64,000 bases of DNA from Eledone cirrhosa (taxonomy: Eukaryota). Below are positions 10,464 through 60,160 of the stretch, piece after piece (the stretch's first letter is position 1; each line of letters begins with the position of its first letter). Under the pieces are notes generated by a model, which was not told the DNA's origin, ran no database searches, and saw nothing but the letters and a program-made list of their open reading frames with translations. The translations under genes and the position numbers were made by a program. The stretch is from NCBI GenBank assembly GCA_964016885.1, contig OZ024743.1, positions 213,466,001 through 213,530,000 on the forward strand, in the 5' to 3' direction.

Positions 10464-13400
10464 TTACAGATACGTACTCAGAGTAGGCCCATTCTCTCGG
10501 GCCATTCTTGCTTCTCTCACCCAAAATGCTGGGAAGAGAGCACTTCCCTCTCTACTCTGATTTTCCTTTTCAAATGAAATTTGAAAAAGTCAATTAGGGC
10601 ATCACCGAAGAGGTAAGTGCTCGTCTTCAGCCCTTTCAAACGTGTCCACCATACTATCTCTTTCGCCATAGCCACCAGACAGATAAAAACTGCCTGCCCT
10701 TCCTGGCTAAAGGAAGAGGGCGGGGCAATCCTCGTGATGGACTCAGATGATAGCCGGATCCGTCCTACACGCGACAGCAGGTGTTCGACATAAACCCAAA
10801 AGTCAGCAATTTTCGGACACTGGACGAGTGCGTGCAGAACGGTTTCGTCGCCCTTCGCGCATCTCGGACATGCCCGGCTGACGGCACCTCCATGCCTGTA
10901 GAGTTTCTCCCGAACTGGCAAGGCTCCCCGGTAGCACTGTCAGGCCAGAGATTTCTGGAAGTTGTCCATAGGTCCCGGCCCGAAAGTTCTTCCGAAGAGA
11001 TTGGCTAGTTGATTTCCGTCGACGCCTAAAGTTTCCCCAAGTACGTCGTCGCTCTTCCCCTCCACTAATCCTCTATAGAACGCCGACGTGGAGTTTCCAC
11101 CGATCACATTGCCCGATTGGTCGAGGGCTGTGAGCGCCTGAAGACATTCCTATCTCCAGGCGCTCCCTCTCGGTCTTCGTTTGACCCAGGACTCCAGCTC
11201 CGTCAAGGAAACGAGCTGGGGAAACACGTGTCTCGCAAACGGCGACCACACCTGATCACCGTCGAGGAAGAGGTGGAGATGTCGTAGCCTGAGCGCGTGC
11301 CTGCGCATCATCAACCACGGCATGCCCAGCCCTCCACGTAGCGGGTGTTGACAACAGATGGACCCCCTGACCATCGGAGCACGTCCCTTCCACAAGAAGC
11401 GAAAGAGCAAACGCTCTAGCGCAGTCAGGCGAGGCTTAGGACAAGGTTCAACGGTCAGGCGGTAGCAGATGACAGACGCGATGTACGCGTTAGCCACCTC
11501 CGTTCGACCTTTCAGGTATAGCTTCCTCTCCGCCCATTTCTGGGTGAGAGAAGCCGCCCTGCTCGTCACCTCGTCCCAGTTTTTGTCCGTCTGGAGGTCC
11601 GGACCGAACCAGACCCCTAGCAATTTAACCGGTCCGTCCGTCAAGCGTCCGACGACGCTGTTGGACGGCATGGACCTGCCCCTCCAGGTGCCGAGCTGCA
11701 TGCCCACTGACCTTTCCTGGTTGATCATTGCTCCTGTCACCGCTTCGTATTCTCTTAGTGTAGTGCCGATCGCCTCGATGTGTTTGGCGTTCGACACCAC
11801 GACGGTGACATCGTCCGCATATGCTGACACGGATCTTCCGCATCCTAGTTCGCGCGGGACGCCCCTCAACGTCTCCAGTTTGTGCAGTAAAGGCTCGAGA
11901 GTCAATATGTACAAGAGGGACGAGAGGGGACAACCTTGGCGGACCGAGCGCATGATGTTAAACGGTTCCGAAAGGTGACCGTTGACTCTCACTACAGAGC
12001 AGATGTCGCTGTGTATGGCAGCGATCCAGCCTCTGAAGACGAGCCCAAAGCCAGCCGCCCTCAGCACTGCCTCTAGGTAACGATGGTCGACCACATCGAA
12101 AGCTTTCGACTGATCTAAATTGATCAAAGACCCACCCGTGCCAGGTACCCTAGCTACCCTCTCTACGATGTATGGCATGAGGTGGAGGTTGTCGTGGAGT
12201 GATCTGTCGGGAATGGCGCATGTCTGCGCCTCTCCCACCAGACTACTAACGATAAGCGCCAACCTCTATGCTAGCACCTTTGCCAAAATCTTGAACTCTG
12301 TGTTTAGCAGAGTTATGGGCCTGAAATTATGTATGTTATCCCCCTTGCTCGGATCTTTTCTCAGCAGTGCCACCGCTCCTCGGCTCACAGAGCTGGGAAT
12401 TCTCCCGTTCTGTTGCCAGTTGCAGAAGACGTCCGCCAAGAGGCATCCGAACAAGTCTGGAATCTGTACGTAAATTTCATAGGGCAGACCATCGAAACCA
12501 GGCGATTTACCCCTTGTGCAGCCAGTCATTGCCTCCCGTACTTCAGCGGCTGTTATCGGCTTTTCGCAAAACTCCGCCTCAGTGGCCGAGAGCCGCGTCA
12601 GTCCGTCGAGGTAGACACTAAAGTCCATCCCTCGACCCGGCCGCCGCTGCCCCCGAACAGCTGAGCGAAGTGTCGCTGAAAAGCTTCACACATTTGCCCG
12701 TGTAGCATGCGTCCGTCGTGGTCCACCAAAGACCGGATCGCGGCTTTGTTGCCACGACGCGCCTCTGCCACTCGGGCCCATTGAACGGCTTTCGTCCCCT
12801 CGTGTCTGAGAGCACGCACCATAGCTCTCACAACGCAGCCTTCGTGCTTTGTATTGAAGAATTGGTCAAGGGCCAATTTCGCCGCAAGCACGTCGGTCGC
12901 GATGCCTTTGCTAAGCACCTCGTCTAATTTTCTAACTAGTTCTCCCTCTGCTCTATTTTTCTCTATTGCTAAAGCCTTACTAAACCTAATGGATTCTATT
13001 CTAATCGCTCTTTTCAGAGCAAACCACTACTTGTTGACGATAGCCCCCGTCAATGCCCGCTTAACTAGTTCGCTAATCTGGTCTCTGTAGGCCTTGTGCG
13101 TCTATGAAGCCTATCTAAGTCAAGCACACAGATCACGAATTTGTGGTCCGTGTAGCTGACTACCTTGAATTGTGGACAGCCTATGCTAAACCTATCTATT
13201 TCCCTACAAAATACTCTATCTAGATATGATCTCGTTGACCCCATGCGATTTGTCCAAGTCCACATTGGCACATTCGGGAAATCCAATCGGTAACTGTCTG
13301 ACAGTTCAAAACGCCTGAGCAGGTTGGTGAGGCTCTTGCACCCTCCACCCCTATCCGCTAATCCCACACAGTCCCAGCGTGCATCTAAGATCCCATTCCA

Positions 13401-13823
13401 GTCGCGCACTAACACTAAAGAGCGGGACGTTCCAAGAAAGGTCTCCAGACGCCGGAAGAAATCAGGCAGCCCTGCTCCTGTTGCGGCATAGACGGCCACT
13501 AGCCTGAAAGCTTGCCCGTCTCCGCTGGTCACGTCCAGCACCACCAACTTACCCTCTGGGTCCAGGAAGATGGCCCGTATGGCGAGATCCAAACCTCTCT
13601 GAAAAATCACAGCAACTCCTCCCCCCGATCCAGGACGGCTGGGAGATGCTTACACATCGTAGCCGCCGAAGATCGGTGCGAAGGCCCGTGCTTCGGAGAT
13701 TCTGGTCTCGCTGATGGCCACTACATCTATGTTTTGTGACCTGAGGTCGTTGAGCAGATAACCCTGCTTCCATGACGACCCCAAGCCACGCGCATTTATG
13801 CTGCCTATTCTGAGTGAGGTCAT
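10464..13823 (-). pseudogene. ORF2 of copy 1: APE endonuclease + reverse transcriptase + C-terminal Zn motif
   Basis: Motifs SINARGL, AISET, SYLDRVF, YTDH, GKSPG.DGLP, NFRPITLLNTEFKILAKVLA, LDQSKAFD, VRQGCPLS, AYADD, CPRC...ETVLHALVQC. In-frame stops, frameshifts and a ~41-bp deletion near 13097. Confidence 0.93.
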
Positions 13824-22483: not shown

Positions 22484-23664
22484 ACACACACACGTATAAA
22501 TATCACGTCACTTCCTTATCGCTCACAAAATAAATGACCAACAATAGTATATTCGGTTTTACTGACAGGAAATTAGACATTAACGATTAGTGGCTCTGGC
22601 ATAATTATCTTGTCATTGTTTCAATCCTTTTAAACATATTGTGATATAGTTTTAATACTAAAACAACAAAAATCATCTTGTTCAAATTTACACTACTTGT
22701 TGCGTACTGCAACAAATAAACACTCCTTTCTGGTAGAATTCATTGAATTAAGATTTGCGTTATTGATCTTCCATAAATGTTGAATAGGTCTGATATTTGG
22801 ATAACGTCCAGACCCAAAACAACATCTCAATTTCATGATCTAAAAAAAAAAAAAGATGTATATTTGATTCTTCTGGCAGAAAATGCGAGGACATTATTAT
22901 GTTGGAATGTTGCCATTATGGAATGAAATATATTATTGTCTACACGGAAGACGCACTTGTAAATATATTCTTAAGATATACAGCGACAATTTCATTGGAG
23001 AAAATGAATGAGAAAACGTCTTGAATGGGTGAAAGATAACTATATTTTCACTGTATCACTTCTTAATCATTTTGTTGTGACATGTGAGCAAAGGTATTCC
23101 CTGTCTAGACATGAACTATCTAGGATTACATTTCACAATATATCCATCTTTACACTGGTGGCAAGTAAGGTAAACAAGCGTTTTCTGGTATTTCAAGCAA
23201 ATCTAAAGACTAGCTAGTAAGTTTTGATAATCTATGATAATCTATTTTATATAAGTATATAATATATTGATAGAAAGAGAAAATGGGGACTTTCAGTCGA
23301 AGGAAATATTTCATATGTTCATTATCTTTTATGTTTGACTTAATGTTTTACAATTTTAAAGAGATCTGTAAATTATTAGTGTATTTAAATTTCCCGAGTT
23401 TATATGTCATATGCAAAGGAGTGTATATAATTTATATAATCTGCAATACAAAAATGCCACAAAAGCTTACAGTGCTTACACATTTCGGTAAAATACGATG
23501 TTAAAAAGAAACGAATATATAAACATCCAGTGGGTGAGATTTCCGAATGTATCATGATTATCTAAATATAAGGTCTATTAATTTGAATTTATTAATATCT
23601 TTTAAGTTGTCAAGTTGTATGTGGATGATTGATTGCATAAACAATATTATATATATATATATCT

Positions 23665-24495
23665 CGTTTGTCCGCTAATGAGCAGATATTCGACGAACAT
23701 GCGCCTCATTACAACCAGGCTCTCGAGCGGAGTGGTTTCCGGGAGGAAATATCCTTCTATCCAGCTTCCCTTAGCGGAACCAGCAGGCGACACCACCGCT
23801 CACGCAACGTAACGTGGTTCAATCCTCCCCACAATGCCAAGGTGGCAACACCTATCGGGAAAATCTTCTTTAGGCTCCTCGAAACACATTTTCCACCATA
23901 ACACCGCTATCACAACATAATAAACAAAAACACTATCAAGCTATCCTACAGCACCACACCTAACTTCGCACAAAACATCGTCTCCTCAAACAACAAAAAA
24001 CTCAACCTCTATGGAAGAAACAACCTAGAAATTAGTGGAGAGCCGACCAGGAACTGTAAGTGCCCTGATAGATCTACCTGCCCCCTCAACAACAGATGCC
24101 GAGAACGTAACGTGATCTACCAGTGCAACGTGAGGACGGACACCTCCAACAAAGCTTATATAGGATTAACCGCTTATGACTTTAAGACCCGGCTCTACCA
24201 ACACTGACATACGTTCGGAAACCCGGTCCGGCGACATGCCACCACACTTTCGGGCCATATCTGGAACCACCAAGATAATAATATAACTTACCATCTTACT
24301 TGGAGCTTACTTTTCAGAGCCAACTCTTACACGGGAAGACGCCGTCCCTGTAACTTATGCTCGAAGGAAACATTACAAATGCTGTTTACGAAGGATCAAC
24401 TCCTAAACAAAAATGACGAACTGGTAACTGCATGCAAACACAGATTGCGGAAGACTTACCTCGCCCTCAAACATCCTAACGATCCGGGTGGGTAG
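23665..24495 (+). pseudogene. Penelope-like RT thumb/linker + GIY-YIG endonuclease
   Basis: One frame with two stops: WFNPP...IGKIFFRLLETHFPP*H...NKNTIKLSYS...CKC...CPLNNRC..NVIYQC...AYIGLT...FKTRLYQH*...CNLC...LLNKNDELVTACKH. Confidence 0.9.
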
Positions 24496-25279
24496 ACTAT
24501 GGCTGAAACACTCCACTTGCCGAATAAGATAGGGAAAACCCCTACTTATATAGGTAGATGTACCTCTTTCTTTTTCCTCTATGTTTTTTCTTTCCCTTTG
24601 TCTCCTATCACTTCTTTCCACCACCGAATTTCTTCCTCGTTCGTTTCTTTGTGTTTTCTTCCCCTTTCGCCTACCCCGAGGCAGCCCATCGGGCGTATTT
24701 AGCCTCAGTACCCCCACCCCAGTAACTTACAGATAGCATTCGCCGATTACGCTATACTAACTATTTATAGCAGCTGTGATAGACTCCAGAGATGTGGTAT
24801 TCATTTTTAATTCTAAATTTTCAATAATTCTCGTCTAGCAACTCATTCTATAGCTTAGGCCGAAATACAGCACCAACTAAATACAGCAGCTGTGTTAGAC
24901 TCTTAGTTTTATTTCACTTCTCACTTTCCAATCTTACATTCTGATACATCTTTCTCTCATTTTTTATTACATTCTCTTTTATTATATTTTTTCATTGTCC
25001 CCTAGTCGCATTTGATTTACTATTTCTATAACGTCCCTCCTACACTTTCTAAATAAAACCTTTTTTCGCCAACCTCCACTGGCCTACTTTCATACACATT
25101 CCTTAGAATTTGCCGTGTAGATTTCACCTTCTACGCTTGACCGGCTCTATCCACTCCAATATCGTTCTACAGACAAGTTCAACCATCCCCACCTCGCACA
25201 CACTGCCATGATAGACTTTTCTGTGTCTGCTACACATTTTGACCAATCCTCTTGACTACTACAATGTTCCCATATAAGT

Positions 25280-25379
25280 ACCTCTTGAAAAGTTCGGCTA
25301 TTTATTTACCAGGCTAAAAAAAACTCTTACATTAGTCCAGAAATAGCCGTCGAAACGGCTTGAGCTCTGCCGACGGGGT
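25280..25379 (+). ncRNA. Type I hammerhead ribozyme motif, U3:A8 variant (cleavage triplet mutated in this copy)
   Basis: ACCTC-TTGAAAA-GTTCGGCTATTT...AAATAGCCGTC-GAAA-CGGC(ttgagctct)GCCG-AC-GGGGT. Sibling copies at 36741 and ~37100 have GTC. Confidence 0.7.
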
Positions 25380-25390
25380 CAATCATTTTC

Positions 25391-25460
<70 letters not shown>

Positions 25461-25466
<6 letters not shown>

Positions 25467-25865
25467 ATAAATGTAAGCTATCGCCGTATTTTGACTAAAG
25501 AAATTAAAGAAATTATTTAGACTGATAGTGGGGTTAAGAACCCTCGGAGAAATGGAAAAAGATGAGTATTGACGTACATGGGAGTCGAACCCACATCTTT
25601 GATTATCCAGACCACTGTGCTACCATTTACACCAACACATCACATTTAGGTGATGTGTTGGTGTAAATGGTAGCACAGTGGTCTGGATAACCAAAGATGT
25701 GGGTTCGACTCCCATGTACGTCAATACTCATCTTTTTCCATTTCTCCGAGGGTTCTTAACCCCACTATCAGGCTAAATAATTTCTTTAATTTCTTTAGTC
25801 AAAATACGGCGATAGCTTACATTTATAATAATTTCAAACCCGCTCGCTGTTTCGAAAAATATTCT

Positions 25866-25868
<3 letters not shown>
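25461..25868. repeat. Fold-back element: 183-bp arms (25461-25643 / 25650-25832) plus 36-nt tail, in (TA)n
   Basis: The arms are reverse complements with 2 mismatches around a 6-nt loop ATTTAG. Confidence 0.95.
25652..25723 (+). tRNA. tRNA-like cloverleaf (anticodon GGA; likely SINE head or pseudo-tRNA); inverted copy at 25570-25641
   Basis: GATGTGT TG GTGT-AAATGGTA-GCAC A GTGGT-CTGGATA-ACCAA AGAT GTGGG-TTCGACT-CCCAT GTACGTC A. 72 nt with A/B boxes. Three G-U pairs in the acceptor stem, and the short variable loop is atypical for Ser. Confidence 0.6.
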
Positions 25869-25900
<32 letters not shown>

Positions 25901-26135
25901 ATATTTAGAAACACACAGATACATGCGAACACACACATATATATGAATGCATCCACATCCAACCGTGAGTCAATGGTGCCAACCCTACCGATGTTGCTCA
26001 ATGAATGACTGGGACAGACCAATCCGGTTGAACCAGACTGAACCAGTATCAGAGTTAAAAATACATTATGAAGAGAGAAGGAACATTTAGATATAATTAG
26101 TAATAAAATGTATCATACCTAAACTGCTCCTAGAT

Positions 26136-26225
26136 TCCTCGACTACGTAGTTTCGTGGCATAAACAAAAACAGTACATCATAAAGATATAGAGCCTTTGC
26201 GAGGTCTGCCGACTTATCAAGAGGA
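26136..26225 (-). ncRNA. Type I hammerhead motif, U3:A8 variant
   Basis: TCCTC-TTGATAA-GTcGGCA...TGCCAC-GAAA-CTACGTAG-TC-GAGGA. Confidence 0.78.
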
Positions 26226-26727
26226 TTCCTCATTTTATAGCTTCAAGAACGCGTCTACACGACGTGAGAAAGAATCCCAAAAGGCGGAGGGGGAGATAGT
26301 CACGCGATATAACGGTCGAGAAACAGAGCTAAGCCTCCTATAACCTCGAAGAAAATACCACGGAGGCGGAGGGGGTATTTATATCGAAGCCGTAGAAGAG
26401 GTGGTAAAGGAGGCGAGAAGTATGAGTAATGGCAGCTTTCCAGCAGTCACTACACTTCATAGATTACTCGACCAGGGGGAGTTATGAACAATATATTTAG
26501 AAACACACAGATACATGCGGACACACACATATACATGAATGCATCCACATCCAACCGTGAGTCAATGGTGCCAACCCTACCGATGTTGCTCAATGAATGA
26601 CTGGGGCAGACCAATCCGGTTGAACCAGACTGAACCAGTATCAGAGTTAAAAATACATTATGAAGAGAGAAGGAACATTTAGATATAATTAGTAATAAAA
26701 TGTATCATACCTAAACTGCTCCTAGAT

Positions 26728-26817
26728 TCCTCGACTACGTAGTTTCGTGGCATAAACAAAAACAGTACATCATAAAGATATAGAGCCTTTGCGAGGTCTG
26801 CCGACTTATCAAGAGGA
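26728..26817 (-). ncRNA. Type I hammerhead motif, U3:A8 variant (tandem copy)
   Basis: Identical motif 592 nt from the first. Confidence 0.78.
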
Positions 26818-27093
26818 TACCTCATTTTATAGCTTCAAGAAAGCGTCTACACGACGTGAGAAAGAATCCCAAAAGGCGGAGGGGGAGAATTACTCATACT
26901 TCTCGCCTCCTTTACCACCTCTTCTACGGCTTCGATATAAATACCCCCTCCGCCTCCGTGGTATTTTCTTCGAGGTTATAGGAGGCTTAGCTCTGTTTCT
27001 CGACCGTTATATCGCGTGACTATCTCCCCCTCCGCCTTTTGGGATTCTTTCTCACGTCGTGTAGACGCGTTCTTGAAGCTATAAAATGAGGTA

Positions 27094-27183
27094 TCCTCTT
27101 GATAAGTCGGCAGACCTCGCAAAGGCTCTATATCTTTATGAGGTACTGTTTTTGTTTATGCCACGAAACTACGTAGTCGAGGA
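27094..27183 (+). ncRNA. Type I hammerhead motif, U3:A8 variant (inverted copy)
   Basis: tcctc 27094-98, TTGATAA 27099-105, GAAA 27165-68, CTACGTAG, TC, gagga 27179-83. Confidence 0.78.
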
Positions 27184-27255
27184 ATCTAGGAGCAGTTTAG
27201 GTATGATACATTTTATTACTAATTATATCTAAATGTTCCTTCTCTCTTCATAATG

Positions 27256-27289
<34 letters not shown>

Positions 27290-27643
27290 AGTGAATGAAA
27301 CTGTTATGTTCTCGACAGCTTCATCGACAACTACGATATCCCACCACCTTATGCGTCACAATTCTAATACCTCAATTTGTATTCCAAGTCTCTAATAATT
27401 TGTCGAGAATCCTTTGTATTTCTATTATATATTTTCTTTCCAAATCTCCGTTGACTTAGCAATCAAAAATTTATGTCGAGTAAAAAAATATACTTTACCC
27501 TTGGAGCGGTGTTTCATTATTGCAATAATTGCTTGGGAACACGAGTTATGTCTCCGAGCACATCTGCAAATTTCCAGCCATTTGCTTTATCTAGAAGATC
27601 GGATCAGGTTTGGTCTTTTATTTGCTATCTTTTCTGCATTATT

Positions 27644-27835
27644 GTGGTGGATTGGCAGAATCGGTAGAGCGTTGGACACCGTGCTTTGTAGCATAGATTT
27701 ATGGCCCTTTACGTTCTGAGTTCAAATCCCGCCGAGGTTAACTTTGCCTTTCATCCTTGCGGGATAGATAACATAAAGTACCAGTAATGCACGGAGGTAT
27801 TTGCTGGCCTTGTGCCAAAACTAGAATCAATTATT
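27644..27835 (+). mobile_element. tRNA-derived SINE
   Basis: Same family as 18132. A partial copy is also at 28274-28410. Confidence 0.87.
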
Positions 27836-28895
27836 ATATACCAGTCTTCCACGCTAGCTTTGATACTGAACTGTTCTAAAGAGATGGAATGCGGTTTATA
27901 AAACAGATGCGTGTTTTGCTTTTTTACGCTATGTGTCCCGCATTTGATCTTAAGTTTCTAAATGAATTCATATTATATTAAACTTATTCAGTTTAACATT
28001 TATATACTGGTGCAGCAGCCACAAAACAGGACATCATTTTGTTGCTTATACATTTAAAGCACATAAAACAATACATGCAAGAAAACTAGATTGAAAATTA
28101 TTAATTTATCACGGTCACCTCTTTTATAGAATTCCACAAAAATATAGGGATTAACAAAGAAAACGTTAATATTTATATATGAAACATGATAATTAACAGT
28201 GATATAGTACATGTCAATTAAACTATGAACGTTGGCTGAAATTGACTGTTAAGCTATTATACATTCGCCAACGAGGCGACGAATTGGCAGAGTCGGTAGA
28301 GCATCAGATAGAATACTTTGCAGTATTCGTTCCGATACCCTGCTTTCTGTTCAAATCCCGCCGAGGTCAACATTGCTTTTCTTCCCTTTAAGGGTGACGA
28401 ATAGTACTACTGGTGGGTCGACGTTTCCTCTATATCTATTTCTCATTTCTATTCACCTTCTCTCTATCCTTCTCTGGAAGAAATCTGCTGTATTCAGACC
28501 TGGATAGTAGAATGCCCCGCCATCTTTCAAAATGGACTAGAAACGTTGTATGTCAATATAGCGTCCCTACAGCACACCCAGGAGTTACGGATCCATACAT
28601 AGATACAGACATATTCACCAAAGACGATCACATTGACAACTTTATTCCTATGAAACGTCGTTGCTTACGAGTGAACGCCACAACGAAACGTTAATATTGT
28701 TATTTCACTTAGATGATGTGAACAAAAAGGACTTGAAACATTAATGGGCTTCGGAATACTGTTGTCTGAATAATTAAGTATAAGGAATTAATTTAGAAAT
28801 AGGACAATGTCCCTTATAGAACATTAAAATCGAGCAACCCGTCGAATTATCAACATACACACAAAAACGCACGCATACACATACATACGCATACA

Positions 28896-28966
<71 letters not shown>

Positions 28967-29240
28967 AAAATTAAGATAAATCAAAGTGAATTTAATCTAG
29001 ATCAAAATTATGGGTGTCATGCCAGAAAGGCATACGCCATATCACCCGTAAAATAAGCTCCAAGATTCTAATGAATATGTCCGAGCATTTTATAACAACT
29101 AGAAATTGATTAACATATAAATAAACATATGAAACAATCACAGGGGATAATGTTTACAGTGTGTAAGCACACATAGCTAGGTAGGTAACTAAATAAAGTT
29201 AACTAGAACTTCAAAAATAGATACCTTATAATATGATTAA

Positions 29241-29335
29241 TCTTCCCTGTATATATTCCATTAAAGAAATATATTTCACCAACTAATCGAAAGGTAAACC
29301 ACGGAGGCCGATACTTGGATTTTCAACAAGGAAGA
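29241..29335 (-). ncRNA. Type I hammerhead motif, U3:A8 variant
   Basis: Reverse-complement copy of 29554-29648. Confidence 0.78.
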
Positions 29336-29553
29336 AGTCCAGCCATCTGTGTTTACGCATTAAGTTCAAATCAGCGACTGGCCAGTAACACGTGCTGTAT
29401 CTACAAAAATACACACATCATACCAGCTTCGTCCCAGTGGCGTGAATAGGGTTATCGACAACTAGAAACAGCAGTCAAGTCCTTTCAACAGAGTTAGCTC
29501 TATCAGGCCAGTCGCTGATTTGAACTTAATGCGTAAACACAGATGGCTGGACT

Positions 29554-29648
29554 TCTTCCTTGTTGAAAATCCAAGTATCGGCCTCCGTGGTTTACCTTTC
29601 GATTAATTGGTGAAATATATTTCTTTAATGGAATATATACAGGGAAGA
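29554..29648 (+). ncRNA. Type I hammerhead motif, U3:A8 variant
   Basis: TCTTCCTTG-TTGAAAA-tCCAA...TTGGt-GAAA-TATATTTC(tttaat)GGAATATA-TA-CAGGGAAGA. 9-bp stem I, 8-bp stem III, AUA cleavage triplet. Confidence 0.8.
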
Positions 29649-29798
29649 TTAATCATATTATAAGGTATCTATTTTTGAAGTTCTAGTTAACTTTATTTAG
29701 TTACCTACCTAGCTATGTGTGCTTACACACTTGTAAAAATTATCCCCTGTGATTGTTTCAAATGTTTATTTATTTATATGTTAATCAATTTCTAATTG

Positions 29799-29874
<76 letters not shown>

Positions 29875-29878
<4 letters not shown>

Positions 29879-30056
29879 AAAGAGCCAGGACTCCGACGGC
29901 TGTGCTATGGCCGTTTCGACAGCTAGATCCGAACAGTTCGGATCTAGCTGTCGAAACGGCCGGATCTCTTTTCCTATTACCCGGTGTTCTACCCTAAGTA
30001 TTGAGTACTCTGGTGCGTTATAGTCCACCTGGTTTCTTACCACACTTTCTTTGATT
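29875..30056 (+). mobile_element. Short fold-back Penelope-like 3' terminus (variant subfamily) in (TA)n
   Basis: Hairpin GGCCGTTTCGACAGCTAGATCCGAAC-A-GTTCGGATCTAGCTGTCGAAACGGCC plus tail CCCTAAGTATTGAGTACTCTGGTGCGTTAT, shared with 36657 and 37001. Confidence 0.8.
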
Positions 30057-30211
30057 TATATATATATACACATGCACATACACGCACTCAAAATATATAA
30101 ATGGATCAAATGTATGCATGTATATATATATATATACATACATACATTTGATGCATTTATATGTTTTGTGTGTGTGTGTATACACACACACACACACATA
30201 TATATATATAG

Positions 30212-36628: not shown

Positions 36629-36656
<28 letters not shown>

Positions 36657-36658
<2 letters not shown>

Positions 36659-36843
36659 GAAAATGTTTAACCCCAACGGCAGAGCTCAAGCCGTGTCGAC
36701 GGCTATTTCTGAAATAGCCGTCGAAACGGCTTGAGCTCTGCCGTCGGGGTTAAACATTTTCCTATTACCCACTCTACTACCCTAAGTATTGAGTACTCTG
36801 GTGCGTTATGGTCCATCTGGTTCCTTACCACAATTCCTTCGTT
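36657..36843 (+). mobile_element. Short fold-back Penelope-like 3' terminus in (TA)n
   Basis: Hairpin 36657-36763 centred at 36710. The arm matches the 3' end of the GIY-YIG element (25340-25392). Confidence 0.88.
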
Positions 36844-37000
36844 ATATATATGTGTGTGTGTGAATATATATATATATTCCATCATGTTATGAGCGAAAAT
36901 AAATTTTGTTTATATATATAAAGAGAGAGAGAGAGAGAGTTGTAGAGAGAAAGAGGGCGAGAGCAGGGGATGGGAGTGAGATTTAGTATATATATATATA

Positions 37001-37199
37001 TAACAAAGGAATTGTGGTAAGGGATCAGATGGACCATAACGCACCAGAGTACTCAATACTTAGGGTAGTAGAGTGAGAAATAGGAAAAAGTATGACCCCG
37101 ACGACAGAGCTCAAGCCGTTTCGACGGCTATTTCTGGACTCGACGGCTATATCTGGACGTCGAAACGGTTTGAGCTCTGCCCTCGGGGTCATACTTTTT

Positions 37200-37203
<4 letters not shown>
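37001..37203 (-). mobile_element. Short fold-back Penelope-like 3' terminus in (TA)n
   Basis: Reverse-oriented sibling of 36657, with a duplicated CGACGGCTAT.TCTGGAC at the hairpin centre. Confidence 0.88.
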
Positions 37204-41096: not shown

Positions 41097-44000
41097 TTTT
41101 CTTTATTAACCACAAGGGTTTACATAAAGTAGACATTAAAGACAGTACAGGACAATACAGGACGGTACAAATGGGCATTTCTGCGTGTAAAAAAACAGAG
41201 GATGTAATAAAATAACAAAGAAAAATTCCTCACAAGGGGGGAGACTTCTGAGGGATATTTGTGGAGAAAGCCCATTAAAAGACCACAGTGACCCTGACCA
41301 CCAGGGTAAGTGCCCTCTCTCAGTTTTCCACCTTTAATTTACAGACACATACTCAGAGTAGGCCCATTCACTCGGGCCATACTTGCTTCTCTCACCCATC
41401 TTTCAACAAAATGCTGGGAAGAGAGCACTTCCCTCTCTACCCTGATTTTCCTTTTCAAATGAAATTTGAAAAAGTTAAGCAGGGCATCATCGAAGAGGTA
41501 AGTGCTCGTCTTCAGCCCTTTCAAACGTGTCCACCATACTATCTCTTTTGTCATGGCCACCAGACAGATAAAAACTGCCTGCCCTTCCCAGCTAGAGGAA
41601 GAGAGCGGAGCATTCCTCACGATGGACTCAGCTGATAGCCGGATCCGTCGTACACGTGACAGCAGGTGTTCGACATAAACCCACAAGTCATCAATGCTCG
41701 GACACTGGACGAGTGCGTGCAGGACGGTTTCGTCGCCCTGCGCGGATCTCGGACATGCCCGGCTGACGGCACCTCCATGCCTGTAGAGTTTATCCCGAAC
41801 TGGCAAGGCTCCCCGGTAGCACTGCCAGGCCAGGGATTTCTGGAAGTTGTCCATAGGCCCCGGCCCGAAAGTCCGTCCGAATAGATTGGCTAGTTGATTT
41901 TCGTCGACGCCTAGAGTTTTTCCAAGTACGTCGTCGCTCTTCCCCTCCACTAATCCTCTATAGAACGCCAAGGTGGAGTTTCCACCGATCACATTGCCCG
42001 ATTGGTCGAGGGTTTTGAGCGCCTGAAGACATTCCAGTCTCCAGGCGCTCCCTCTCGGTCTTCGCTTGACCCAGGACTGCAGCTCCGTCAAGGAAACGAG
42101 CTGGGGAATACGTGTCTAGCAAACCGTGACCACACCTGATCACCGTCGAGGAAGAGGTGGAGATGTCGTAGCCTGAGCGCGTGTCTGCGCATCATCAGCC
42201 ACGGCATGCCCAGCTCTCCACGTAGCGGGTGTTGACAGCAGAATGACCGCCTGACCATCGGAGCGCGTCCCTTCCACAAAAAGCGAAAGAGCAAACGTCC
42301 AGCGCAGTCAGGCGGGGCTTAGGACAAGGTACGACGGTCAGGCGGTAGCAGATGACACACGCGATGTACGCGTTAGCCACCTCCACTCGACCTTTCAGGG
42401 ATAGCTTTCTCTCCGCCCATTTCTGGGTGAGAGAAGCCACCCTGCTCGTCACTTCGTCCCAGTTTTTGTCAGTCTGGAGGTCCGGACCGAACCAGACCCC
42501 GAGCAATTTAACCGGTCCGTCCGTCCAGCGCTCGACGGCACTGTTGGACGGCATGGACCTGCCTCTCCAGGTGCCGAGCTGCAGGCCCACTGACTTTCCT
42601 GGTTGATCATTGCTCCTGTCACCGCTTCGTATTCTCTTAGTGTAGTGCCGATCGCCTCGATGTGTTTGGCGTTCGACACCACTACGGTGACATCGTCCGC
42701 ATATGCTGACACGGATATTCCGCATCCTAGTTCGCGCGGGACACCTCTCAACGTCTCCAGTTTGTGCAGTAAGGGCTCGAGAGTCAATACGTACAAGAGG
42801 GACGAGAGGGGACATCCTTGGCGGACCGAGCGCATTATGTTGAACGGTTCAGAAAGGTGACCGTTCACTCTCACCACAAGCAGATGTCGCTGTGCATAGC
42901 AGCGATCCAGCCTCTGAAGACGGGCCCAAAGCCAGCCGCCCTCAGGACTGCCGCTAGGTAACGATGGTCGACCCTATCGAAAGCTTTCGACTGATCTAAA
43001 TTGATCAAGGACCCACCGGTGCCAGGTTCCCTAGCTACCCTCTCTACGATGTATCGCATGAGGTGGAGGTTGTCGTGGATGGATCTGTCGGGAATGGCGC
43101 ATGTCTGCGCCTCTCCCACCAGACCACCAACGACAAGCGCCAACCTCTTTGCTAGCACCTTGGCCAAAATCTTAAACTCTGTGTTTAGCAGAGTTATGGG
43201 CCGGAAATTTTCTATCTTATCCCCCTTGTTCGGATCCTTTCTCAGCAGTGCCACCGCTCCTCGGCTCACAGAACTGGGAATTCTCCCGTTCTGTTGCCAG
43301 TTGCAGTAGACGTCCGCCAAGAGGCCTCCGAACAAGTCTGGCATCTGTACGTAAAGTTCATAGGGCAGACCATCCAAACCAGGCGATTTACCCCTTGTGC
43401 AGCCAGTCATTGCCTCCCGTACTTCAGCGGCTGTTATCGGCTTTTTGCAGCACTCCGCCTCAGTGGCCGAGTGCCGCGGCAGTCCGTCGAGGTAGACACT
43501 AAAGTCCATCCCTCGACCCGGCCCACCGCTGTGCCCCCGAACAGCTGAGCGAAGTGTCGCTGAAAAGCTTCACACATTTGCCCGGGATCGTGTAGCATGC
43601 GCCCGTCGTGGTCCACCAAAGACCGGATCGTGGCTCTGTTGCCACGACGCGCCTCCGCCACTCGGGCCCATTGAACGGCTTTCGTCCCCTCGTGTCTGAG
43701 AGCACGCACCCTAGCTCTGACAACGCAGCCTTCGTGCTTTGCATTGAAGAATTGGTCAAGGGCCAATTTCGCCGCAAGCACGTCGGTCGCGAGGCCTTTG
43801 CTAAGCGCCTCGTCTAATTTTCTAACTAGTTCTCCCTCTGCTCTATTTTTCTCTATTGCTAAAGCCTTACTAAACCTAATGGATTCTATTCTAATCGCTC
43901 TTTTCAGAGCAAACCACCACTTGTTGTTGACGATGGCCCCCGTCAACGCCCGCTTAACTAGTTCGCTAATCCGGTCTCTGTAGGCCTTGCGCGCTGGTAA

Positions 44001-46667
44001 GGACGCGTTTAGCTTCCAGTAGCCGGATCCTCGTCTATGAAGTCTATCTAAGTCAAGCACACAGATCACGAATTTGTGGTCCGTGTAGCTGACTATCTTG
44101 AATTGTGGACAGCCTATGCTAAACCTATCTATTTCCCTACAAAATACTCTATCTAGCTATGATCTGGATGACCCTATGCTATTTGTCCAAGTCCACATTG
44201 GCACATTCGGGAAATCCAATCGGTACCTGTCAGACAGTTCAAAACGCCTGAGCAGGTTGGTGAGGCTCTTGCACCCTCCACCCCTATTCGCTAATCCCAC
44301 ACAGTCCCAGCGTGCATCTAAGATCCCGTTCCAGTCGCCCACTAACACTAAAGAGCGGGACGTTCCAAGAAAGGTCTCCAGACGCCGGAAGAAATCAGGC
44401 CGCCCTGCTCCTGTCGGGGCATAGACGGCCACTAACCTGAAAGCTTGCCCGTCTCCACTGGTCACGTCCAGCACCACCAACATACCCTCTGGATCCAGGA
44501 AGATGGCCCGTATAGCGAGATCCAAACCTCTACGAAAAAGCACAGCAACTCCCCCCCCCCCCGATCCAGGACGGCTGGGTGATGCGTACACATCGTAGCC
44601 GCCGAAGATCGGTGCGAAGGCCCGTGCTTCGAAGATTCTGGTCTCGCTGATGGCCACTACATCTATGTTTAGTGACCTGACGTCGTTGAGTAGGTGACCC
44701 TGCTTCCATGACGACCCCAAGCCACGCGCATTTATGCTGCCTATTCTGAGTAAGGTCATCTTTAAAATGGAGTGGAAAAGATGGGAAAGACCACTTACCG
44801 TACTTTTCGTAGAGGAAGGATGGTTTTTCCATCCCTTTTCACTTGATCGTCTGGTGAAGGGACCGTTGAATCGTCCCTTCGGCTGGTCGTCGGCTCTTCT
44901 ATGAGTATGTCCGAATATACTCTCCGGTTGAGAGTCCCCCCTAGGTCTATGAAATCACCAACTGCGTTGGGGCATTTCGTTTTAATGTTTGTTTATTGTT
45001 TCTGTGCTATTTTTACCAGTCTTATGTTCGTTGGCGTTTTGATTGGTGCTGGTATTATGTAGTCGTGCTGTGAAATGTCTGTATGTTCAATTATGTAAGT
45101 CATTAGTTTCTTGTTGTGTGTATTTATTGCCGTGCATTTGTTTTTCTGGGGGTGAGGTATGGTTCTGCTATTTTCTGGTCGTTGTTGCTGGGTGTGTGTG
45201 TTTTGTTGTTGTGTTTGTGATGTTGGTGCTTGTGGTGGTGGTGTTGAAGGTGTTGTTGTTGTTGGCGGTGGGGTTGTTGCCGGTGTTGATGGTGGTGCTA
45301 GTGTGGGTGGTGATGGTGTTGGTGGTGCGAAAGCATTTCGGGCGTTTGCCCTCAACATTTATGGGCATTTGAGTGCCGTTATCGAAGTCTAACACATCCA
45401 GGATAGCTTCGATGCACTCCTGGTTGGTTTGGATTAACATCTCAACGGAGGTGCCGACCCAATCTTTTCTTACTTTTTTCTGTACTTGCAGTACAGTTGT
45501 TTTGTCCTCGATTCCGACGAGGACAGTCGCGGCTAGCCAAGAAGGGGCCATCCGGGGGGGGGGGGGACGTGGGTCAGTTTGACACTCACAATTTTTTGCC
45601 CGCAGTAGGAGGGGGCACCAACACCATTTCCTCGCTCCTTAGGGTCACTAAGGATTGAGCCTTTGCCTCCTGGGGTGTGGCAAAAAGCACGTCTATGGTG
45701 GCATATTTCTTGCCTCGGGTGATATGCGTTTTCCGCTGCCACACAGACCCTAAGGCTTTTTGTGGCTCTTTCAACCCGACGGGATTTTGTGCTTACTGTA
45801 CGGTACGTGACCGTACAGTGCTGTTGAGTTTCGAAAAATGTTTCGGCTGCCTTGCAGATTGCTTCGCTTCTTGTAATTCCTCATTTGTTATGACGATGGT
45901 TTCCAGGTTCTTTGCGATACCTGCAAACGAGATTGGTTTTTCTTTGCTGCTGTTGTTGTTGTTGTTGATGCCGTCAGAGCTGCTGTTACTTTTGTTTTTG
46001 CTGCAGGTAATACGACTACTGCCGCCACCGCTGTTGCTGTGGTTGTTGTTGTTGTTGTTGCTGCTGCTGCTAATGCTGTTGTTGTTTATGCTGCTGCTGA
46101 TGCTGTTGCGGCTGCTACTGTTGTTTTCCTTCTCACTGTTACTGCTTCTGCTGCTGTTATTACGGCTGCTACTGCTATTATTCATGACGTCAGACGAATG
46201 AAATGGGTTTTCGTATTTCCCGCACACCTTTTTCGTCGTTGTTGTCGTCGTGGAGAAATGTTCCTTGATTTGCACGTGATTTTGTAAACTATTTTTCTTT
46301 ACTAGCGTCGCTTGCGAAAGAGAAGGGAGCGAGTGAGACACATTTAGAGAAGGGAGGGAGAGAGACAACCTTCTCTCTGCTGTAGTGACGATTCAGGAAG
46401 AAGAAAACGGAATGAGTGGGAGTGACTTGTGAAAATTCTTTTTCGTAGCCATGTTTTTTTTTGGTTTAAAATAAATACTGGGCACAAAACCCCAATAATC
46501 GGTTATTTAAACCCGAAGGGCAAAATATGGGACAGAAAGACCCTTCTCACGAGGATGAGGGTGTTTTTGTCTATAGTTTGGTTAAAGTTTTAAACAATTT
46601 ACAATTGTTATAGCGGTCGACATTTACAATACCTTACAGAGCCGAACCTCCGTCAACCATGGCATTC
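41097..46667 (-). mobile_element. Tx1/L1-type retrotransposon copy 2 (same family as copy 1) in (AAT)n
   Basis: Same 5' terminus GAATGCCATGGTTGA and same 3' UTR as copy 1. ORF2 at 41339-44759. ORF1 at 44795-46452 has a ~440-bp deletion at 45327. Confidence 0.93.
41339..44759 (-). pseudogene. ORF2 of copy 2 (APE-RT), frameshifted
   Basis: MTLLRIGSINARGL, VYAP, VGDWN, GYWKLN, FRPITLLN, AYADD, FQKSLAWQCYRGALPV. Confidence 0.93.
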
Positions 46668-47888: not shown

Positions 47889-50800
47889 ATTTCTTTATTG
47901 GCCACAAGAGCTGACATCAAGAAAAACATCACAGACGGAACAGGACGGTACGATGTGGGCTTTGTGCGTGTAAATATTTTTATTATTTATATAATAAAAG
48001 AAAAAAAGACATAAAACATATATATATATATAAACAATAAAATGAAAATTTAAACAATGAAAAATTCCCCAATAGGGGAGAAACCTCCGAGGGTTACTCG
48101 TGGCGAAAACAAACAAAAGACCACGGCCACCCTGACTACCAGGGCAAGCGCCCTCTCTCAATTTTTCCATCTCTCAAACTACAGACGTATATTCAAAGTG
48201 TTCCCGTTCACTCGGACCATTCTCGCTACATTCACCCCCCTTTCAACTAACTTGCTAGAAAGCAGCACTTGCCTCTCCACCCTGATTTTCCTCTTCAAGT
48301 GAAACTTGAAAAAGTTAATTAGGGATTCGCCGAAGAAGAAAGTGTTTGTCTTTAATCCTTTTAACCTTGTCCACCACACAATCTCTTTTGCCATGGCCAC
48401 CACCAAGCAGATGAAAACCGCCTGCCCTTCCTCCTCAAAGGAAGACGGCGAGACCATCTGCACAATGGACTCAGTCGACAACCGGATCAGTCCCACACGT
48501 GACAGCAACTGATCGACATAGCTCCACAAGTCAGTAATGCTCGGGCACTGAACGAGTGCGTGCACAACGGTTTCGTCGCTATGCGCGCATCTCGTACAGG
48601 CTCGGCTGACGGTACTTCCGTGCCTGTAGAGCTTATCTCGAACCGGCAGCACTCCCCGGTAGCACTGCCAGGCCAGGGATTTTTGGAAGTTATCCATAGG
48701 CCCCGGGCTGAAAGTTCTCCGGAAGAGAGCAAACAGCTGATCTTCTTCGACGCCCAGCATCTCTCCGAGAATGTCGTCGCTCTACCTCTCCACTAGTCCT
48801 CTATAGAACGCCGAGGTGGATGTTCCAGCGATACTGGTGCCCACTTGGGAGAGGGAAGTGAGTGCCTGGAGATATTCCAGTTTCCAAGCGCTATCCCTCG
48901 GTCTTTTTCTGACCCAGGACTGCAGCTCCGTCAAGGAGACGAGCTGTGGGAAAATGTGCCTGGAGAACGGCAACCACACCCGTTCACCATCAAGGAAGCA
49001 CCAGAGATCTCGCAGCCTCAGCGCATGTTTGCGCATCATCAGCCATGGCATGCCCAGTCCTCCACGCAACGGGTGTTGACAGTAGATGGATCCTCAGACC
49101 ATGGGAGCGCGTCCCTTCCACAAAAAGCGGAAGAGGAGGCGCTCCATTTTGGTGAGAGTTGGGCTGGAGAAAGGGACGACGGTGAGGCGGTAGCAGATGA
49201 CGGATGCGATGTACGCATTCGCTACATCCGCGCGGCCTTTCAGGGACAGCTTCCTCTCAGCCCATTTCTGGGTGAGGGAGGCCACCCTGCTCGTCACCTC
49301 GTTCCAGTTTTTCTCCATCTGGAGGTCCGGTCCGAACCAGACCCCGAGCAATTTAACCGGTCCGTCCGTCCAACGCTCCACGACGCTGTCGGACGGCATG
49401 GACTTGCCTCTCCAGGTGCCTAGCTGCAAGCCCACCGACTTTTCTTGGTTTATCTTTGCTCTTGTCACCGCTTCGTATTCCTTGAGAGCGGTGCCGAGCA
49501 TCTGGACGTGTCTGGTGCTCGACACCACCACGGTGACGTCGTCAGCGTAAGCCGACTCGGATTTCCCGCATCCTAGTTCGCGTGGGACGCCCCTCATCGC
49601 CCCCAGTTTGTGCAGTAACGGCTTGAGAGCCAATACGTACAAGAGGGACGAGAGGGGACAACCTTGGCGGATTGAACGCATGATGCTGAACGGCCGCGAC
49701 AGGTGACCGTTCACCCTCACAACTGAGCAGATGTCTCTGTACATTGCTGCGATCCAACGCCTGAAAACGGACCCGAAACCGGCTGCCTCGAAGACCGCCG
49801 CCAGGTACCGATGGTCGACCCTATCGAATGCTGTGGATTAATACAAGTTGATCAGGGCCCCACCCTTGCCATGTTCCTTAACCACCCTCTCTATGATGTA
49901 TCGCATGAGGTGGAGGTTATCGTGTTTGGATCTGTCCGGAATGGCGCATGTCTGCGGCTCTCAGACCAGACCCTTGACGACAAGCGCCAACCTCGTTGCT
50001 GACACCTTGGCCAAAATCTTGAACTCTGCGTTTAACAGGGTTATGGGCCTGAAATTATCAATAACATCCCCATTGTTCGGGTCTTTTCTCAGCAGCACCA
50101 CTGCTCCCCGGCTCATAAAACTGGGAATGCTCCCGTTCTGCTGCCAGTTGCAGTAGACGTCTGCAAGAGGTCACCGAACAAGTCTGGCATAAAAGCATAA
50201 ACTCGTAGCGCAGACCATCTAAACCTGGCGATTTACCTCTTGTGCAGTTAGCCATCGCTTCCCGTATTTCACCGGCTGTTATTGGCTTTTCGCAACACTG
50301 TGCTGCGGTCGTCGAGAGCCCAGGCAGTCCGAGGAGGTATGCACTGAAGTCCATGTTCCGATCCGGGCCGCGCTGCTCCCGAACAGTTCAGCAAAGTGCT
50401 GCTGAAAAGCTTCACACATCCGCTCGGGTTCGAGCATCACGCACCCGTTTTGGTCAGACAAAGACCGAATTGTGGCTTTATTGCCACGTCGAGCCTCTGC
50501 CACCCGGGCCCATTGGACGGCTTTTGTCCCCTCGTGTTTTAGAGCACGCGCTCTAGCTCTGACAACGCAGCCTTCGTGTTTTGCGTTGAAGAATTGGTCG
50601 AGTGTCAATCTCGCCGCAAAAACGTCGGTTGCGATGCCTGTCCTAAACGCTTCTTCTAGCTTTCTGACTAGCTCTCCCTCTACTCTATTTTCCTCTATCA
50701 CTACTCCTTTACTAAACCTAATCGACTCTACTTTAATTGCCCTTTTCAGGGCGAACCACCACCTGTTGTTGACGTCCGCTCCCGTCAACGCCCGCTTAAG

Positions 50801-53800
50801 TAATACGCTAATCCGATCTCTGTAGGCCTTGCGCGCCGGGAAAGACGCGTTAAGCTTCCAGTAACCAGGCTCTTGTCTATGAAATCTGTCTATGTCGATC
50901 TCACAGATCACAAATTTGTGGTTTGTGTAGTCGACCATTTTAAATTGTGGACAACTTATACTAGCCTTATCTAGTTCCCTGCAGAATACCCTATCTAGAT
51001 ACGATCTGGATGACCCGATGCGGTTTGTCCATGTCCACATTGGCACATTCGGGTGATCCAGTCGATACCTGTAAGACAGTTCAAAACGTCTGAGCAGGTT
51101 GGTGAGGCTCTTGCACCCTCCTCCCCTATCCACTAGCCCCACACGATCCCAGCGTGCATCCAAGATACCGTTCCAGTCGCCCACTAACACTAAAGAGCGG
51201 GACGCTCCAAGAAAGGTCTCTAGACGTCTGAAGAAATCTGGCCGTCCTGCCCCTGTTGGGGCGTAGACGGCTACTAGCCTGAAAGCATTGCCTTCGCTGC
51301 CGGTCACGTCCAGCACCACCGACTTACCTTCTTGGTCCAGGAAGATGGCCCGCATCGCGAGATCCAAGCCTCTCCGAAAAAGGACGGCAACCCCTCCCCC
51401 CGATCCTGGACGGCTGGGAGATGCGTATACATCGTAGCCGCCGAAGATCGGTGCGAAGGCCCGTGCCTCGGAGATTCTGGTTTCACTGATGGCCACCACA
51501 TATATGTTTAGTGACCTGAGTTCATTGAGCAGGTGACCCTGCTTCCAATATGACCCAGGCCACGTGCATTTATACTGCCTATTCTGAGTACAGCCATGTT
51601 GGATGAGAAACGGCGCAAATGAGAAAGGGTCACTTACCTTGTTCGTGTGGTGAAGGGACAGTAGAACCGTCCCTTTCGCTGGTCATGGGTGTTTCCAAGA
51701 GGATGTCAGTGTATATCCTCTTGGTAACCGTCCCTCTGACGCTCTGAAGTGGCCAACTGCGTTGGGGAATTTTTGTTTTAAAGGTTTGTATTGTTCTATT
51801 GAGATTTCGATGATGCTTATGTTTGTCGGGAGAGTTCTTGGTATTGGTGGGGTGTAGTAGCTTTTTTTCCGTGATGTCTGTGTGCTGCTTTATATATTTT
51901 ATGAGTTCTTTTTTTGCTATGTTTATGGCTGTGTACTTTTTTGGGGGGAGGGGTGATTTTGTTGCCGTTTTCTCCTTGTTGCTGTTTGGTGTGTGTGTCT
52001 TGTTGTTTGCGTTGTTGGTGTTTGTGGTGGTGTTGCTGCAAGTTTCCTTGCTGACTTTACCTCTCTTTGTATGCCTTCGCTTTTGGAGGGTGAATCTAAG
52101 GGTTTTTTATTGTTTTTTGTTTTTTTGTGGCAGACTGTTTGCCACGTCACTCCCGCCTCAAACTCCATGTCGGATTCTGTGGCGTCTGGGAGGGGTATCT
52201 GCTCCACGGCTGTTGGTGGTGGTAGTGGAGCCCTCTTCGGCAATTTTGTTGCTGGTGTAGCTATTTCAAATGTAGCTATTGGTGTTGCCGCTACTGATGA
52301 TGCTGCTTTAGTTATCCGTGGCCTTGGTACGGGTGCTACGGACGTTGCCCTCCTACTCACCGTGGAAGGGGCTTCTTGGTTTGTTCCCTGTCCTATTCTT
52401 GGTAGCAGCGGACCAGCTATTGGAAGGAGAGGGGCCCTCTTCGGTGTCTCTTCGGGCAAAAGGCCCTGAGGTGACCCTTCGACCCACAGAGATAACATTT
52501 TGGCCGTCTTCCGTCTACACTTAGAGGGAGTTGGAGTCCTTCCTCGAAGTCTATGATATCGGGGATAGCCTCGATACATTCCTGGTCAGTTTGTATAAGC
52601 ATTTGCATGCCTATACCTGATCAGTTCTCTCTCCCTATTTTTTCTACTTGCAGCATGGTCGCCCTGTTCTCAATTCCAGCAAGGACAGACGCAGCCAGCC
52701 AAGGTATGGGCACGTCGGGTGAGACCTGGGTCACTTTACCCTCACAATTTTCTGCCCGCGGTAGGAGGGCACCAAGACTAACTCCTCACTCTTTAGGGTT
52801 TCCAAAGAGTGAGACTTTGCTTCCTGGGGTGGTGGCGAAAAGTACGTCTACTGTGGCGTACTTTCTGCCTCGGGTGATGTGGGTTTTGCGTGCCAGACGC
52901 ACCCCAATGCCTTTTGGATTTGAGCCTCCGTGGCTCTCTCCACTCGATGTGAGATTTTGCTTACGGAGCGGTAAGTCACCGTCCGTAGCTGCTGGTCCTT
53001 GAAAAAATCGGGTGGAGGTTTCAGGGAAACTCTATTTGCGCTTCTTGTCACCATGGCCCTTGCGACTGCCATCTCCTCCTCTGTGACTCGATATTTCGGG
53101 CGAAACCTGCAAAAGAAATGGTCCCTTTTTCAGCAGCACCACTATTGCTGCCGCTACTGGTCTTACTGGTGGTGCTGAGGTCGCTATTACAGGTATCGGT
53201 GTTATTGTTGTTCTTTTCGCTGGTACAGTTGTTGGTGTTGTTTTCGTTGATACTGTTGCTGCTGTTACTGTTATTGTGGCTGTTGTTATTATTGTTGTTT
53301 TTGTTGATACTGTTCCTACTATTATTGTTGTTGTGGCTGTTGTTATTGTCATTGTTATTGTCGTTCTCGACCTTACCGCTGTTATTTTTGTTATTGTTGT
53401 TCTCGACCTTACCGCTGTTATTTTTGTTATTGTCGTTCTCGACTTTACCGCTGTTATTTTTGGTGTTGTTGTTGGTGATGTTGTTGGTGTTATTGTTGGT
53501 GTTGTTTGTGTTAGAAATATTTGGTAATTTTAAATCTGTAACAATCTTTTTTCGTTTGTAATATTTTCGTTTATATTTACCTCCGCTGGAACGCTGTCTT
53601 GTTGATATGCTGATAAAGTCTCCATCTCTCTGTGTTGTCTGACAGCGCTCTCTCTCTTTGTGTTATGCATGTTGACATTTTTCAAAAAAAATATTTTTAC
53701 ACAAATACGAATACGACACCCCGTAAAGGGGTGCCGTATTATTTACTAGTGAACCCCTGTATCAGATGGGTCTCTTCTTCTAAACTTTTATCAAATTTAA

Positions 53801-60157: not shown

Positions 60158-60160
60158 ATA

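Follow-up and report, generated by a model that had tools for sequence, protein, structure and literature searches.

Introduction

Natural hammerhead ribozymes in which a U3:A8 pair replaces the canonical C3:G8 pair of the catalytic core have been described before. Perreault (2011, PMC3088659) reported natural U3-A8 and U10.1-U11.1 core variants and, citing Przybilski (2007), reported U3:A8 as active in vitro. In Schistosoma, an altered descriptor recovered about 1,300 U3-A8 hammerheads from Penelope-like elements (PLEs) (Cervera and de la Pena, 2014, PMC4209133). Here we consider a stretch of 64,000 nucleotides from Eledone cirrhosa (assembly GCA_964016885.1, contig OZ024743.1, positions 213,466,001 to 213,530,000, forward strand; hereafter the window), where three families of elements inserted in (TA)n, termed A, B and C, carry type I hammerhead motifs with a U3:A8 core. 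An initial annotation of the window had concluded that a population of such variants escapes the standard search, a conclusion anticipated by the reports of 2011 and 2014. The additions to the published record are an older C3:G8 sister of family A and an amplified mismatched intermediate within A. In the literature searched, from which some key papers and supplements fell outside coverage, there was no report of an amplified C3/G7/A8 (CUGAGAA) family, nor of U3:A8 in the Hydra clade of PLEs.

The two core variants found here are those described by Perreault (2011), although theirs are scattered, whereas those of the window belong to high-copy animal retroelement families. The pseudo-long terminal repeats (pseudo-LTRs) of Cercyon in S. 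mansoni (PMC4209133) are similar in that they carry type I, U3-A8 motifs with a long helix II that the canonical descriptor misses, and in that copies on opposite strands lie 100–700 bp apart. However, the motifs reported for Cercyon are minimal and devoid of helix III, whereas A and C have a full helix III and helix II arms of 42–60 nt; copy numbers are higher here, and the text consulted on Cercyon does not mention a C3/A8 subfamily. PAc, a Poseidon element of Anolis (Frangieh, 2024, PMC11167929), is likewise a PLE with a hammerhead, AT-rich targets and a one-sided tail, but its core is described as canonical C3:G8. In general, PLE hammerheads are weak, and an additional residue lying between position 9 and position 10.1 is conserved in them.

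Six hammerhead motifs in three insertions

The window contains six hammerhead motifs, all U3:A8, which together represent three insertion events. They are built of three helices about the core, with helix I left open.

25280–25379, plus strand: hammerhead A, type I, core TTGAAAA at 25285, predicted cut after 25374
26136–26225, minus strand: hammerhead B, core TTGATAA at 26220, predicted cut at 26141
26728–26817, minus strand: hammerhead B, core TTGATAA at 26812, predicted cut at 26733
27094–27183, plus strand: hammerhead B, core TTGATAA at 27099, predicted cut after 27178
29241–29335, minus strand: hammerhead C, core TTGAAAA at 29326, predicted cut at 29250
29554–29648, plus strand: hammerhead C, core TTGAAAA at 29563, predicted cut after 29639

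The search used a type I descriptor in which core positions 3, 7 and 8 were left unconstrained. Five motifs in the 64 kb fit this descriptor (three of B, and two of C after 2x3 loops were allowed), and all are U3:A8; 100 local dinucleotide shuffles of the window gave one match in total and none with U3:A8. Hammerhead A was detected only after U16.1 was relaxed, as this copy reads GAC (A16.1) where its family reads GUC. The change is private to the window copy, with U16.1 present in 30 of the 31 family A copies examined. Six folds in three families without a common stem sequence had been proposed in the initial annotation, and this description stands: all six were located, and no sequence similarity between A, B and C is detectable (best cross-family blastn E about 0.5). 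Its motif edges match ours and its predicted cuts after 27178 and 29639 are correct, but the positions that it assigned to the cores are not core positions, and three of the six motifs lie on the minus strand. All six folds were called complete, which is not true of the window copy of A.

The residues U4, G5 and A6, A9, G12, A13 and A14, the pair A15.1-U16.1, and H17 are present in B, in C and in family A, with the window copy of A failing this set. The 10.1-11.1 pair is G-C in A and B and U10.1-U11.1 in C, whose cleavage triplet is AUA. Stem III of A has 4–5 bp and a loop of 9 nt, and the C motif at 29554–29648 has 9 bp in each of stems I and III. Stem II is long as had been claimed, spanning 60, 59 and 42 nt in A, B and C, but such a span is not peculiar to these motifs: 5 of the 35 canonical-core motifs in the genome sample described below have a stem II of 46–61 nt. 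When constrained to the hammerhead fold, C lies within 1.1 and B within 3.9 kcal/mol of the minimum energy, while the defective window copy of A lies 15 kcal/mol above it. The minimum-energy folds of A and B pair part of the core. An Rfam scan of the window gave 70 matches at E up to 5, with no hammerhead among them.

Family A is a Hydra-clade PLE

The family A insertion is bounded by (TA)n, starting in a run at 23659 and ending in (TA)n at 25393–25462 (Tandem Repeats Finder), and consists of two parts.

23659–24495, plus strand: open reading frame (ORF) remnant of family A, a 5′-truncated Hydra-clade PLE with reverse transcriptase (RT) thumb, CxCx5C linker and GIY-YIG endonuclease; two in-frame stops
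24496–25392, plus strand: 3′ untranslated region or pseudo-LTR of family A, common to other genomic copies

The remnant is 83% identical over 278 aa to the 710-aa open frame of another copy. That frame is a single ORF in which RT motifs are followed by a C-terminal GIY-YIG domain (VIY...YIG), with RWR at 27, DKT at 109, CxCx5C at 564, CNLC at 662 and CKH at 690. The protein has one Cys inside GIY-YIG as well as CxxC and CxH, and has neither CCHH nor GxKF/Y. By these protein marks family A is a Hydra-clade Penelope-like element. A Neptune-type identity was dropped, as the protein lacks both CX2-5CxxC and CCHH. Atlas neighbours of the protein carry HTH_animal, GIY-YIG and RVT_1; a Pfam search with the remnant frames and two long PLE frames, and a PDB sequence search, returned nothing useful. 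Family A shares with the Hydra clade as described by Craig (2021, PMC8557442) the marks RWR, DKT, CxCx5C, CxxC and CxH, the absence of CCHH, the (TA)n association and the 3′ hammerhead. It differs in that the Hydra-clade rows have a short helix II and CTGANGA, whereas in A the core is U3:A8 or C3/A8 and the 3′ region measures about 0.8–1.2 kb. Copies of A occupy (TA)n targets, carry the hammerhead at the 3′ end, occur as tandem or inverted truncated copies and have a one-sided tail. The Penelope-like relation that had been proposed is supported for A by its protein, and B and C have PLE-type ends. The window also contains, at 29875–30060 and 36656–37200, 3′ fragments from family A and a relative that are very short and double back on themselves; they hold only the 3′ half of the hammerhead and a one-sided tail of ~100 nt.

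Core states and history of family A

Family counts were obtained by exact pattern searches of the 3.0-Gb assembly with positions 3, 7 and 8 free, and letters were read from the first 100 rows. The A superfamily has 4,844 genomic matches (reversed-pattern control, 0). Among the 100 matches listed, A8 is present in all 100 and C3 in 31; each of the four letters occurs at position 7, so that the register is fixed. By direct count, C3 stands with A8 in 1,689 of the 4,844 matches, and 94 of the 100 such matches listed have G7. Subtraction leaves at most about 3,100 copies for U3:A8, and C3:G8 in the context of A is found in only 9. The claim that positions 3 and 8 always change jointly therefore fails for A. 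In 1,473 exact copies, CTGAGAA is preceded in such a way as to give five C's followed by TGAGAA. This run of five C's rules out a T deletion as the origin of CCCCTGA and indicates that C3 arose by substitution.

Family B has 6,845 genomic matches and C has 954 (reversed controls, 0 for both). Among the 100 matches listed for each, B reads TTGATAA in 99 and TTGATGA in one, and C has U3 in 100 and A8 in 94. Family consensus sequences with CTGANGA, or with random letters at positions 3 and 8, had been named as an outcome that would undermine the proposal; B and C keep U3:A8, and it is A that departs in part, with C3 against A8.

A sister family, O, shares stems I and III and the tail with A, and its surviving protein pieces are 39–64% identical. 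Its core is CTGATGA (of 32 copies, 29 have C3 and 28 have G8). A G-C of stem II in A is replaced by A-U in O, a compensatory change. As this older sister reads CTGATGA and all 26 Hydra-clade rows in File S2 of Craig (2021, PMC8557442) read CTGANGA, the comparison of cores indicates that U3:A8 in A is derived from C3:G8. Families O and C also have U10.1-U11.1, which is frequent among the hammerheads of that source.

A tree was built from the 31 of 43 copies with ORF DNA that each cover at least 560 of 1,030 columns, with the hammerhead left out. A first tree, from 394 columns near the hammerhead, omitted one C3 background and was superseded by the ORF trees. The 31-copy tree requires position 3 to have changed twice and position 7 four times. 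Its 11 C3 copies branch off one after another as successive subfamilies, in a ladder that lies between two U3 groups. The younger U3 group is nested inside the ladder with support of 100/100, and a single C3 clade is rejected (approximately unbiased test, p 8.6e-6). Whichever root is taken, the tree indicates continued transposition of master elements in which C3 faced A8, followed by a return to U3 in one lineage. Strict covariation thus fails inside A, given that 1,473 copies read CTGAGAA and that a U3:A8 lineage re-emerges. Across the 31 copies, positions 4, 5, 6, 9, 10.1, 13, 14, 15.1 and 16.2 are invariant, and in the C3 copies the remaining core letters are fixed except for single-copy changes; by comparison, 95 of 244 third-codon columns have shared changes. 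All 11 C3 rows carry G7, and the U3 rows carry A, C, G or T at this position.

Families B and C are non-coding tandem units

Families B and C are each represented in the window by one insertion made of two arms.

25898–26888, minus strand: long arm of family B, 1.7 head-to-tail units of 591 nt, extended 3′ end in (TA)n 25869–25904
26889–27258, plus strand: short arm of family B, 5′-truncated and inverted, ending in (TA)n 80 nt beyond the cut site
28948–29502, minus strand: long arm of family C, one unit of 571 nt, ending in (TA)n 28891–28964
29506–29803, plus strand: short arm of family C, inverted, ending in (TA)n 29800–29874

In both insertions a long arm and a 5′-truncated arm stand head to head, with two different 3′ ends in (TA)n; a layout of inverted, truncated arms like this has been described for PLE insertions. 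The 591-nt period of B occurs four times in locus L243, and a tandem period of 570–574 nt is found for C in seven loci. Both families are non-coding (longest ATG frames of 75 and 38 aa), have one type I hammerhead per unit, and contain 43% (B) and 34% (C) GC. The helix III region of B is a 10-nt palindrome that is unable to fold alone and pairs between two copies at -12.9 kcal/mol, which on this folding model is a double-hammerhead (dimer-type) design. A diverged C subfamily in another locus, L247, has about 73% identity and retains TTGAAAA and U-U together with the first pairs of stem II.

These units resemble the metazoan non-LTR retrozymes (Cervera and de la Pena, 2020, PMC7229834; Li, Clavereau and Pollet, 2026, bioRxiv 10.64898/2026.07.22.740005), which are described as non-coding tandem units with one type I hammerhead each, and for which a PLE link has been proposed. 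However, the units of 591 and 571 nt are larger than the 150–450 bp given for metazoan retrozymes, a class also characterised by linear and circular monomer RNAs. They further differ in the U3:A8 core and the inverted, two-armed (TA)n insertions.

A canonical sister is known only for A. Searching with an exact pattern (spacer 30–60) for a relative of B with a canonical core gave no matches, although diverged relatives could escape it, and none was sought for C; three independent origins of U3:A8 are therefore not demonstrated.

Frequency of the variant core in the genome

To estimate how common the variant core is, we sampled 14 contigs in 100 stretches of 10 kb at even spacing (999 kb in total). 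This sample contains 48 type I motifs, of which 35 are C3:G8, 10 U3:A8 and 3 C3:A8, with no U3:G8; five shuffles gave one match and the reversed control none. One of the ten U3:A8 motifs is a doubtful single, and weak minimal motifs fall under the threshold. Extrapolation gives a genome total of about 144,000 motifs (93,000–198,000), similar to the 120,000 hammerheads of the axolotl, with 30,000 (9,000–54,000) U3:A8 among them. The expectation that a CTGANGA search would miss such variants is thus borne out, and canonical descriptors undercount hammerheads by about a fifth in this genome.

Further variant motifs lie outside the window. A fourth U3:A8 family, E, is an inverted pair with a short stem II in locus L105 (6411–6600 and 7000–7230). 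A fifth U3:A8 motif, F, stands behind GIY-YIG remnants in L116 and L123; it reads TTGAGAA, preceded by an additional C, and has a 5-bp stem II and a palindromic stem III. PLE families in L030 and L186 have a hammerhead-like TTGANGG, possibly U3 with G8 and G9.

Proposed mechanism and alternative explanations

We consider it probable that all three families carry type I motifs with an inherited U3:A8 pair, in the 3′ repeat of a PLE (A) or in non-coding units (B and C), that these motifs are likely slow cutters, and that cutting is likely helpful to the elements while not being required for their spread. The folds, copy numbers and family cores, the RT-GIY-YIG frame of A, the (TA)n targets, the inverted 5′-truncated layout with its two different 3′ ends and the tandem units are observed, whereas the following scheme is a proposal. 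Read-through RNA of tandem copies would be cut after GUC or AUA to yield unit-length RNA. A and C would act as monomers, and in B the palindromic helix III would make a double hammerhead. The unit-length RNA, possibly circularised, would then be copied into nicked (TA)n by the PLE RT-endonuclease, and B and C are likely mobilised by such Penelope-like enzymes. In A, the core would have passed from C3:G8 to U3:A8, then through several C3/G7/A8 master elements and again to U3:A8, and weak selection may keep the core while tolerating a poor 3:8 pair. The more than 1,400 mismatched copies suggest that elements of this kind can likely multiply even when they cut little or not at all. Published work lends support: U3:A8 is reported to be active in vitro (Perreault, 2011), PLE hammerheads are weak, and in PAc (Frangieh, 2024) insertion in vitro is reported to survive 3:8 mismatches that abolish cleavage.

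Several points weigh against this reading. Cutting by A, B and C is a prediction from sequence, and the window copy of A is probably dead. Among the pairwise mutants of one type III hammerhead, scanned in full by Roberts (2023), only a G:C swap rescued position 3:8, so that U3:A8 can be weak. The rows of the A tree are top-ranked matches and pattern matches, most of them on contig C1. The outgroup O, with a branch of 0.39, places the root among the older U3 copies, weakly (62–78); given this weak root, C3 may have changed to U3 twice independently, in place of the order U3 to C3 to U3. Lastly, no autonomous partner has been tied to B or C among the loci examined. The PLE frames beside B and C were rejected as partners, as they are separated from them by (TA)n.

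One alternative is that CTGAGAA is itself a working core, in which a register shift, with position 7 left out and an extra A after A9, lets G7 pair with C3. G7 would then serve as a stepping stone from C3:G8 to U3:A8, and cleavage would be strongly selected all along. Family A would then record a core-pair exchange, with an active CUGAGAA (at least 1,473 copies) bridging two U3:A8 lineages and G7 replacing G8. The preponderance of G7 among C3:A8 copies, both in the genomic matches listed and in the tree, is in keeping with this idea. The C3 ladder has a U3/G7 copy as its sister, and position 7 departs from G only once U3 has been restored; the other core letters are nearly fixed in the C3 copies, and PLE hammerheads conserve an extra nucleotide at 9/10.1. 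Nevertheless, G7 in a single lineage may be inheritance alone, and an unchanged position 7 along the ladder is not unlikely from the branch lengths (roughly 1 in 5). The scan reported by Roberts (2023) includes no double mutant that rescues G8 except the G:C swap, and the 9 copies with C3:G8 mean that no amplified CTGAGGA step is seen. We regard both the shifted register and the exchange built on it as doubtful. If true, CUGAGAA gives a viable single-step path between C3:G8 and U3:A8, contrary to laboratory mutant scans.

In another alternative, the hammerheads could be inactive passengers in which changes at positions 3 and 8 of a master element are neutral and the fold is kept for some other role, for example in binding of the PLE protein or in placing the start of reverse transcription. 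The amplification of A with a mismatched core speaks for this explanation, and Naiads spread without canonical hammerheads. In PAc (Frangieh, 2024), single 3:8 mismatches are reported to abolish cleavage while insertion in vitro continues, cleavage by the ribozyme is reported to require protein, and no reads ending at the cut site are described. We consider the explanation improbable, since the letters of the catalytic core are invariant across the A subfamilies while position 7 and the loops change, U3:A8 recurs in the unrelated E and F, and the sample holds no U3:G8 and only three C3:A8 among 48 motifs. B, moreover, keeps its dimer-type palindrome and exact tandem units. Least credible is the notion of chance matches, or of canonical hammerheads that have decayed, to which the defective window copy of A, the silence of Rfam and the partly paired cores in the minimum-energy folds of A and B might seem to point. 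U3:A8 never appears in the shuffles, and the family counts refute the notion; with thousands of copies sharing the core, U3:A8 is an inherited state rather than decay, as the initial annotation had proposed.

Other features of the window

Between the insertions of A and B, at 25461–25868, lies an element headed by tRNA-Ser(GGA), with head-to-head inverted arms of 183 nt in (TA)n and a 36-nt tail confined to one side. Loci L018, L121, L163 and L209 hold truncated copies, inverted or in tandem, and the element looks like a short interspersed element moved by PLE enzymes. Four diverged copies of a multi-kilobase segment, at 10578–13600, 41463–44530, 48306–51370 and 54537–57143, with Thr/Pro-rich trinucleotide tracts nearby, are probably a tandem gene family. 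A degenerate inverted repeat at 60160–60629, without TA ends, is perhaps a miniature inverted-repeat transposable element.

Implications

Family A provides a set of natural alleles, namely the CTGATGA sister, TTGANAA and CTGAGAA, in a nearly identical scaffold and with a known history. With this allele set, the question of whether PLEs need hammerhead cleavage in order to spread becomes directly testable. Either a retroelement has multiplied beyond 1,400 copies while its ribozyme was crippled, and the in vitro findings reported by Frangieh (2024, PMC11167929) would gain support in vivo, or CUGAGAA is an active core that has gone unrecognised.

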